Origin: Folioceros fuciformis
Taxonomy: Eukaryota
Assembly (NCBI GenBank): GCA_049999805.1
Contig: JBNGIO010006294.1
Span: forward strand, 263,108-300,114
Length of the DNA: 37,007 bases
Direction: 5' to 3'
The position numbers were made by a program, and so were the translations under genes. A model generated the notes under the pieces. It saw only the letters and a list, made by a program, of their open reading frames with translations. It had not been told where the DNA came from and did not search any database. Of this stretch, positions 1,433 through 2,841 are shown in pieces; positions within the stretch are counted from its first letter, which is position 1; each line of letters opens with the position of its first letter.

Positions 1433-2841
1433 TCAATTGCGATGATTAGCACCCTCCACGGCCATCAAACCCTCAGAAGCAACCAGTTCCGGAAGATTCA
1501 AACCCTCGCCGATAGCTTCATTGAACACGAAATCAATCACAAACGTATCACCGAGGCTAAGCTCTTGCTCAAAGTCTAGATCAGCCGCTGCCTCTGGTGC
1601 CGCCTCCATGAAAATTGCAAACTTGTCATCCTCGTCCCCAGAACATGTTGGATAAGGGCGGGCTGACACTTCTGGTGTAGGAGGGGAAACCCGAAATCTT
1701 TTCAAACTCTGGCCGATATAATCATCGAGGCTGAGCTCTGTCTTGAATTGGTTCAGTAGTTTGTCCCGTCGGGAATTAGGGTCGCTTCCAGCAATGGTTG
1801 CTGCGGGGTCATTGCTCTCCCAAAAGTGACGACACACCCAGCCCAACAAGTCAACCTCAACGTCTAGATCAGCCGCTTCCTCTGGTGCCACCTCCATGAA
1901 AATTACAAACTCGTCATCCTCGTCCCCATAACATGTTGGATAAGGGCGGCGGGCTGACACTTCTGGTGTAAGAGGGGAAATCGGATATTTTTTCGAACTC
2001 TGGCCGATATAAGCATNNNNNNNNNNNNNNNNNNNNNNNNNNNNNNNNNNNNNNNNNNNNNNNNNNNNNNNNNNNNNNNNNNNNNNNNNNNNNNNNNNNN
2101 NNNNNNNNNNNNNNNNTGGCCGATATAAGCATCGAGGCTGAGCTCTGCCTCGAATTGCTTCAGTAGTTTGTAAGGGCGGGCTGACACCTCTGGTGTAGGA
2201 GGGGAAAGCAGAAATTTTTTCAAACTCTGGCCGATATAATCATCGAGGCTGAGCTCTGTCTCGAATTGGTTCAGTAGTTTGTCCCGTCGGGAATTAGGGT
2301 CGCTTCCAGCAATGGTTGCTGCGGGTTCATTGCTCTCCCAAAGGTGACGACACTCCCAGCCCAACAAGTCAACCTCAACGTGTAGATCAGCCGCTTCCTC
2401 TGGTGCCACCTCCATGAAAATTGCAAACTCGTCATCCTCGTCCCCAGAACATGTTGGATAAGGGCGGGCTGACACTTCTGGTGTACGAGGGGAAAGCGGA
2501 ATTTTTTTCAAACTCTGGCCGATATAGTCATCGAGTCTGAGCTCTGCCTCGAATTGCTTCAGTAGTTTGTCCCGTCGGGAATTAGGGTCGCTTCCAGCAG
2601 TGGTTGCTGCGGGTTCATTGCTCTCCCAAACGTGACAACACTCCCAGCCCAGGAAGTCAACCTCAACGTCTAGATCAGCCGCTTCTTCTGGTGCGTACGG
2701 AAAGTCTTCATCACCAAGATCATGGGGTGACACCTCCTCCTGGTTCACCAACAGGTTCCCGAACAAGATCGGAAGATCTTGGCGAGCTGCGACTTGTTCA
2801 CCATCATAATTCCTCAAGACCTCTTCCTCCTCCTCCTTCAT
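1433..2841 (-). CDS. Candidate chimeric gene (or pseudogene): acidic tandem-repeat protein derived from the PMIR central region, ~430 aa if the N-gap is closed on its overlapping flanks
   Basis: ATG at 2841 and TGA at 1435-1433. Translation ([73 protein letters not shown]) matches PMIR ~6200-7200. The 16-nt TGGCCGATATAAGCAT occurs on both sides of the gap (2001-2016, 2117-2132); merging gives 1293 nt = 431 codons with no internal stop. Confidence 0.5.
1575..2700. repeat. 288-bp (96-codon) tandem repeat built from a PMIR segment; ~3 full units plus partial units, interrupted by a 100-N gap
   Basis: Anchor T(C/G)TAGATCAGCCGC at 1575, 1863, 2381 and 2669 (288-nt spacing on each side of the gap); units align along their length. 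Confidence 0.9.

Follow-up and report, generated by a model that had tools for sequence, protein, structure and literature searches.

An open reading frame between hemC and PMIR

The window, by which we mean the whole stretch analysed here, comprises 37,007 nt of Folioceros fuciformis DNA (contig JBNGIO010006294.1); it is plant-like and nuclear, with short GT..AG introns. Between an intact hemC gene for porphobilinogen deaminase and an intact PMIR gene of the PMI1/PMIR1-2 (PLASTID MOVEMENT IMPAIRED 1) family, which serves to position chloroplasts, self-comparison of the window revealed a partial second copy of both genes. The minus strand of this second copy contains the open reading frame (ORF) considered here (1433-2841), which starts in the antisense of a hemC exon and then runs through sequence of PMIR exon 1. 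Judged by sequence comparison, the locus can be described as a paralogue of the PMIR gene next to it, truncated and amplified internally.

The ATG of the ORF (2841-2839, minus strand) is the reverse complement of the CAT in plus-strand TCA TAC (2838-2843), the Ser-Tyr codons of the hemC copy. PMIR homology reaches at least 2826 and the hemC copy begins at about 2835, which places the duplication breakpoint within 2827-2837. The first-pass annotation had proposed a start codon antisense to these codons, right at the breakpoint, and a chimeric gene whose body comes from PMIR; the sequence and the alignment with the porphobilinogen deaminase 4htg_A agree with the former, and the self-comparison agrees with the latter. 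The nearest in-frame stop upstream of the ATG is at 2899-2901 (minus strand). At the other end, the ORF closes with a TGA at 1435-1433 (minus strand), where the aligned parent has GGA; the parental frame continues for nine more codons past this site to the 5' splice site.

An assembly gap of 100 N (2017-2116) lies within the ORF; it is flanked on both sides by an identical 16-nt sequence that falls at one and the same position of the repeat unit. As assembled, the ORF has 241 and 193 codons on the two sides of the gap. Closing the gap on the 16-nt overlap gives 1293 nt, i.e., 430 codons and the TGA with no internal stop, as had been claimed; this is a minimum model, which assumes a gap of zero length. 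The ORF lacks approximately the first 790 parental codons and exon 2, and with the change from GGA to TGA nine codons before the exon end, the parental protein cannot be encoded. Frameshifts and internal stops, which would mark a pseudogene, are absent from the 430 retained codons. Past the new stop, a relic at 1285-1432 (minus strand) begins with the last nine codons of parental exon 1 and continues through the PMIR intron as far as the opening bases of exon 2, where PMIR homology ends (1285-1490 matches 6059-6264 at 86.9%); the old 5' splice site and the intron are still present there.

Within the ORF (all features on the minus strand), a non-repeated N-terminus of 49 codons (2695-2841) shows homology to the PMIR exon 1 linker from about codon 10 (2537-2826 matches 6919-7211 at 82.3%). 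It is followed by an array of at least 4.5 units, delimited by unit alignment and, over 2171-2694, by a period of 288 found by Tandem Repeats Finder. U1 (2407-2694) has 96 codons and U2 (2170-2406) has 79 of the 96. U3 has 55 codons in total across the gap: to the right of the gap (2117-2169), it starts from unit column 43 after the 2170|2169 junction, and to the left (1889-2016), a CGC codon is duplicated at 1951-1946. U4 (1601-1888) again has 96 codons and is matched by RNA contigs of the sequencing run X1, described below. In the partial unit U5 and the tail (1436-1600), aligned to the units and to the parent, nine unit codons are followed by the DLD|FEQ junction at 1574|1573, an older form of the unit middle, the EL|VASEG junction at about 1490, and 18 codons that belong to the beginning of the PMI1/PMIR C-terminal domain. 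The units are 93-95% identical to one another and correspond to 6727-6812 and 6917-7076 of the parent at 81-85% identity.

The rearrangements listed in the first-pass annotation, including the change of SARPY to KLLKQ near 2170 and a 3-nt insertion near 1948, are all present in the sequence. The deletion after ELS measures 48 nt relative to the parent, and the unit junction FMEV|APEE recurs with a period of 288. The junction 2170|2169 between U2 and U3 skips 59 codons (177 nt); it is 54 nt away from the gap edge, with a single nucleotide of microhomology. The DLD|FEQ junction skips 38 codons (114 nt), and a jump of 190 codons (570 nt) leads to ELVASEG at 1489. The frame is preserved at every event, and about ten can be counted, more than the six originally named.

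The parent PMIR gene (minus strand; exon 1 at 9335-6184, a 118-nt intron at 6183-6066, exon 2 at 6065-4868; gene model and Pfam) is complete and encodes 1449 aa with the Pfam families NT-C2 (PF10358, E 2.8e-11), PMI1_PMIR1-2_C (PF21745), and LysM. Among 8000 scored candidates, 220 homologues had E <= 0.001; the top ones, from lycophytes, liverworts, and mosses, share 48-54% identity across 63-65% of the part used as query. The last four exons of the intact hemC gene lie in the window on the plus strand (1-42, 134-339, 437-612, and 709-825 including the stop), and the start of the gene is left of the window edge. These exons are joined in X1 contigs by splice joints and their spliced translation is open; the 3' untranslated region (UTR) at 826-1292 (plus strand) is covered by an X1 contig spanning 709-1292 with zero differences. 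The end of this contig (1292) nearly touches the start of the PMIR relic (1285). The convergent hemC and PMIR-copy units are apparently in contact at about 1285-1292 because the deletion of PMIR exon 2 joined them.

Probable duplication and rearrangement at the locus

The locus very probably arose by tandem segmental duplication with breakpoints in a hemC exon and in PMIR exon 1, as the alignments suggest. The duplicated unit would have begun in the hemC exon, crossed the 3' ends of the convergent hemC and PMIR genes, and finished in PMIR exon 1, giving, from left to right, intact hemC, a PMIR 3' fragment, the junction, a hemC 3' fragment, and intact PMIR. On the minus strand, the 3' part of PMIR would have come to face, head-to-head, a plus-strand hemC copy lacking its promoter and 5' end, and the CAT of the hemC Ser-Tyr codons would have become an in-frame ATG on the opposite strand. 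A later loss of about 1.6 kb in the copy (the equivalent of 4420-6059) would have removed the PMIR 3' UTR and nearly all of exon 2. Presumably, a 348-nt piece of the acidic linker was duplicated in tandem with 2 nt of microhomology, and in-frame deletions (48 and 12 nt relative to the parent) shortened the unit from 348 to 288 nt, while U5 seems to retain the older, longer unit middle (21 and 3 nt relative to the parent). The 288-nt unit would have been amplified to at least 4.5 units, and the copy would also have undergone three larger in-frame deletions (114 nt and 570 nt in U5, 177 nt between U2 and U3) and the duplication of the CGC codon. The change from GGA to TGA nine codons before the old exon end would have closed the frame.

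The descent of the ORF body from PMIR exon 1 is indicated by its source segments in the parent, approximately 7211-6727 and 6264-6059; the copy DNA is 80-87% identical to 6059-6264 and 6727-7211. Since copying, the synonymous divergence (dS) from the parent has reached 0.216, and identity has fallen to 83% in the PMIR intron relic and to 78-81% in the 3' intergenic part. At this divergence, the term newborn, used in the first-pass annotation, is not appropriate. As PMIR homologues can be aligned in a conserved motif of the linker and not reliably in its variable part, assignment to the copy lineage appears possible only for the changes in the motif and, approximately, for the ELS-to-DD length.

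The hemC copy (2835-4020, plus strand) is 5'-truncated and has no start codon; a 1-nt insertion is present at 4008, near its end. It is recognised by Pfam (Porphobil_deam, E 1.3e-07), by alignment with the Arabidopsis chloroplast porphobilinogen deaminase 4htg_A from P-S/T-Y-L-P on (E 1.6e-18), and by self-comparison, where 3-691 matches 2967-3657 at 91.3% and 654-1225 matches 3854-4420 at 82.8%. As a control from the same event, it shows 33 substitutions in 177 codons, with dS 0.111 and a ratio of non-synonymous to synonymous divergence (omega) of 0.46. At the intron equivalent to 340-436, the one pair checked, it has kept its splice sites. Nothing in the hemC fragment matches the ORF's run of in-frame rearrangements.

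The last intron of the hemC fragment is filled by a 22-nt minisatellite of about 12 copies (3623-3888), interrupted by 10 N at 3749-3758; the counterpart of this intron in intact hemC (613-708) measures 96 nt and contains no such repeat. The hemC side of the duplication, compared over 3-691 and 2967-3657, is about half as diverged as the PMIR side, compared over 830-1290 and 4020-4490 together with 1285-1432 and 6059-6206: dS is 0.111 vs. 0.216, and 20 of 215 hemC intron sites differ. This disparity could be explained either by gene conversion between the hemC copies or by a two-step history.

Frame, RNA, and residue change

The run search listed eight runs, of which three (X1, X2, and X3) contain sequence of 2117-2900; the shares of the 74 sampled words of this region are 0.92, 0.92, and 0.89, respectively. 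The contigs of these three runs were compared with the window over 1-1855. X1 contigs skip 42>134, 339>437, and 612>709, all GT..AG, and X1 depth is 0 in bins wholly within these introns, whereas the DNA runs X2 and X3 read through them. X1 is therefore RNA without visible DNA carry-over, a status that comes from the intron-skipping joints alone, as no listed run is recorded as RNA. X1 contigs are identical to U4 at 1650-1728, a stretch that is different in every other unit, and at 1778-1855. Other X1 contigs carry the variants 1624 C, 1744 C, 1808 T, and 1825 G, which match U1, U2, or U3 at homologous sites, so more than one unit is represented in the RNA. Since the X1 word share of 2117-2900 equals that of a DNA run, the non-repeated N-terminus and the junction are apparently also largely present in RNA. 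There are no X1 contigs on 1303-1550, which includes the stop codon and is covered by the DNA runs, although a contig hole alone proves nothing. Among the X1 contigs over 1-1855, no single RNA with both the ATG and the TGA was seen. Neither Rfam matches at the gathering score in 1-5000 nor inverted repeats of the hairpin or small interfering RNA type in 1200-3100 were found (zero matches and zero pairs).

The indels and the lack of stops suggest that the frame may be maintained. The small indels relative to the parent are 3, 48, and 12 nt, with 21 and 3 nt in U5, and the array events are 348/288, 177, 3, 114, and 570 nt; all of these roughly ten definable indels and junctions are multiples of three. 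In the non-coding parts of the same duplication, only two of the eight indels are multiples of three (1 and 3 nt in hemC exons and introns; 2, 5, 10, 4, 3, and 2 nt in the 3' UTR and intergenic part). The one-sided Fisher test of coding against non-coding events gives p = 0.009 with six events and 0.0015 with ten; the ten are not all independent, since the unit junctions are copies of one event, and the CGC duplication is a multiple of three by its mechanism. Moreover, the 2170|2169 junction is beside the gap, and some of the small indels may have arisen in the parent gene, where being in frame is obligatory. As for stops, 0.032-0.040 of random substitutions in the ORF would create one, and the probability of none is 0.02-0.14 for 60-100 substitutions on the copy lineage, at least 32 of them among the units. 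If evolution were strictly neutral, a frame with no stop and with every event a multiple of three would have a joint chance of roughly 1e-5 to 1e-2. Because this chance is small, some selection for an open frame is favoured, and the RNA adds to this; pure neutrality looks improbable.

Taken together, we consider the ORF a proto-gene, with a probability of roughly 0.45: a transcribed, translatable ORF for an acidic repeat protein, the frame of which is under weak selection. The frame is probably held open by such selection. Of the earlier suggestion that there is selection for translation, the underlying pattern of indels in multiples of three and no stops is borne out, and RNA is present over the array and the junction; constraint on the residues does not show in omega.

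Several observations weigh against this interpretation. In the pooled comparison of the N-terminus, U1, U5, and the tail with the parent (178 codons, Nei-Gojobori), there are 22.5 synonymous and 65.5 non-synonymous differences, which corresponds to dS 0.216, non-synonymous divergence (dN) 0.178, and omega 0.82; by codon position, the differences are distributed 34/28/26. Omega of the units against the parent is 1.41, 0.95, 1.0, and 1.93, with 0.27 for the N-terminal 35 codons and 0.52 for U5. Among the units it is 0.65, 2.62, 1.68, 1.25, and 1.21, and in one pair all 14 differences are non-synonymous (0 synonymous); the variable sites (28 of 288) fall on codon positions as 9/11/8. By these counts the residues appear to be without constraint, and the omega below 1 expected under purifying selection does not emerge. 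An alignment of the parent, the copy, and 17 of the 120 listed PMIR homologues shows that the parent and 17/17 homologues have the FL, (M/L)L, and SPR of the linker motif (..EFL.ML.. and ..SPR..LL.QFE..), and that these residues are replaced in all three units covering the motif, U1, U2, and U4. Since the parent and all aligned homologues retain it, the loss must have occurred on the copy lineage. In the EFL.ML region (about 2640-2663, minus strand, vs. about 7022-7045 in the parent), 11 of 24 nt differ by hand count, compared with about 20% overall; this cluster could result from a complex mutation or from directed remodelling.

The argument from the frame is itself weakened by microhomology. 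Identical 3-5-mer pairs in the parental coding segment are in phase with shares of 0.45-0.51 (3-700 nt) and 0.51-0.69 (3-60 nt), compared with 0.34-0.41 in non-coding controls (k 3-5), and in-phase microhomology of 1-5 nt is present at the ORF junctions. With p set at 0.5-0.69, the chance that all events are multiples of three is 0.016-0.11 for six events and 0.001-0.024 for ten. The figure of (1/3)^6 given in the first-pass annotation is therefore too small, on account of both this bias and the non-independence of the events. Furthermore, the presumably dead hemC fragment has no nonsense codon in 177 and a single frameshift, the 1-nt insertion; thus, a mostly open frame at such an age is not remarkable in itself. 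Neither fragment brought a promoter, and the native 3' exon and UTR are gone. The evidence for transcription comes from one RNA run of one study, in strandless contigs without transcript ends. An upstream ORF of nine codons (2838-2867, minus strand; ATG at 2867) has its TGA overlapping the main ATG and would affect initiation only if the minus-strand RNA begins beyond 2867. The assembly gap may contain further units. Finally, searches with the 241-aa piece of the ORF gave no relatives, either at protein lengths of 132-422 aa (4708 candidates) or at 423-2000 aa (8000 scored), and a full HMMER scan of 1.84 billion representatives with it gave 0 matches.

Much of the above would be expected of a decaying pseudogene fragment, that is, a neutral relic whose ORF has stayed open by chance and mutational bias, amplified from an already open unit and giving incidental RNA (antisense, read-through, or cryptic initiation). 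Omega close to 1 at all levels, the destroyed motif, the in-phase bias of 0.45-0.69, the almost intact hemC control, the absence of a promoter and of the native 3' exon and UTR, and the lack of protein relatives in the searches run are all consistent with it. In addition, the number of small gap events is not reduced (3 in 422 aligned coding nt vs. 6 in 449 non-coding nt), as if indels were unselected as a class. This explanation is quite possible, but it has to accept the small joint chance given above even at biased rates, the contrast with the equally old non-coding flanks, where only two of eight indels are multiples of three, and RNA that spans U4-specific sequence and the junction region. 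A real young gene is possible as well, although we regard it with more doubt. A minus-strand mRNA would then start in the antisense of the hemC fragment and be translated from the hemC-derived ATG into an acidic tandem-repeat protein of at least 48 kDa derived from the PMIR linker, with the frame selected and the residues and motif remodelled; if so, unit omega of 1 or more could reflect positive selection.

It is unlikely, though worth considering, that the RNA belongs to another transcription unit, either that of the parent PMIR, which lies some 2 kb upstream on the same strand and could contribute read-through or alternative 3' exons, or a plus-strand RNA running from the array into the hemC fragment, so that the 430-codon ORF is not its translated frame. 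X1 words extend to 2900, past the ATG and into the hemC fragment, at the share of a DNA run; a long leader would place other minus-strand ATGs (3274-3044 and 2867) ahead of the main one, and the splice-site pair preserved in the hemC fragment would suit such a transcript. However, no contig joint connects the array with other exons within 1-1855, and no plus-strand frame that starts with ATG leads from the array into the hemC fragment (the frame 2586-3053 lacks a Met). An assembly artefact around the 100-N gap, in which a collapsed or chimeric join of units would void the ORF as read, is very improbable. The gap does lie inside the array between identical 16-nt edges, the odd 2170|2169 junction with 1 nt of microhomology is only 54 nt away, and words sampled from 2117-2900 occur in the DNA runs at shares of only 0.92 and 0.89. 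Nevertheless, X2 and X3 DNA contigs agree with the window in pieces over 1-1855, including 559-1489 and 1461-1654 (these runs perhaps derive from the same sample as the assembly), the RNA run from a different study contains U4-specific and other unit variants, and extra whole units in the gap would leave the frame intact.

Product, comparable systems, and other features of the window

If translated, the product would have a mass of at least 48 kDa and a pI of 4.2, with 92 D+E and 36 K+R (the pI of the parental linker is 4.05). As the first-pass annotation noted, new residue types have appeared: the copy has 6 W, 7 C, 6 H, and 12 Y, compared with 0, 0, 1, and 0 in the 166-aa parental segment. 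The absence of NT-C2 and LysM predicted there is also seen, as zero Pfam families were found in either half of the ORF (2119-2841 and 1436-2014), which leaves the copy without NT-C2, PMI1_PMIR1-2_C, and LysM; of the C-terminal domain, only the 18 codons ELVASEG...HRN align, to the domain start in the parent. In Arabidopsis PMI1, the NT-C2 region is required for plasma-membrane binding, and fragments without the extended NT-C2 are cytoplasmic (bioRxiv 10.64898/2025.12.30.697064). Because NT-C2, the C-terminal domain, LysM, and the linker motif are all gone, competition with PMIR through a shared interface is unsupported; the proposed role as a competitor of PMIR finds no backing, and the destroyed family motif argues against one exerted through it. 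Any activity of the product would rest on bulk charge and other bulk properties or on the new residues rather than on PMIR function.

The ORF resembles the PMI1/PMIR1-2 family in that its body comes from PMIR exon 1 and is acidic, and differs from it in lacking all three parental Pfam domains and in the replaced linker motif. With duplicated (non-processed) pseudogene fragments, it shares the partial copy, omega of about 1, the loss of conserved residues and of the last exon, and a nonsense change; the roughly ten in-frame indels and junctions, the absence of a stop over 430 codons, and the presence of RNA set it apart. The proto-gene concept is reportedly that of Carvunis et al. 2012. The likeness to such proto-genes consists in a transcribed open frame with little or no residue constraint and an unproven product; the difference is that here old coding sequence is used in its old frame rather than non-coding DNA, and only the first codons are new.

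Tandem duplications that ignore gene boundaries are a well-described source of new and chimeric genes, as in a study of Drosophila yakuba (PLoS Genet 2017, PMC5460883), in whose cases the duplicated 5' part with its promoter drives the transcript. Set beside those chimeras, the locus is similar in the joining of two gene parts, the recruitment of unrelated sequence as the start of the frame, and the presence of the junction in RNA. In contrast, two 3' parts of convergent genes were joined here head-to-head without bringing a promoter, the start codon comes from exon antisense, and an internal 288-nt array was formed later. By combining head-to-head 3' parts, an antisense start, and in-frame repeat growth, the locus varies a known route in an unusual way and does not represent a new kind.

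If the ORF is translated, the locus would represent a clean, datable gene birth in a non-seed land plant, combining a tandem duplication of convergent genes, a start codon from exon antisense, and in-frame repeat amplification. Internal controls are available within the one window, namely the parent gene, the dead twin of hemC, and the non-coding flanks of the same event. If it is untranslated, it would be a caution that indels which are all in frame are weaker evidence of selection than they look: where coding sequence is acidic and 3-periodic, microhomology raises the odds of an in-frame rearrangement well above one in three.

Farther along the window, a plus-strand frame at 11456-12085 includes a J-domain-like HPD stretch, and a multi-exon gene at 25459-30525 (plus strand) includes helicase-like and HNH-like stretches; both were noted by eye in the ORF list only. 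At 35936-36175, there are tandem repeats of 34-35, 69, and 103 nt, the units of which contain the plant telomere-type motif GGTTTAG/TTTAGGG at a position internal to the window.

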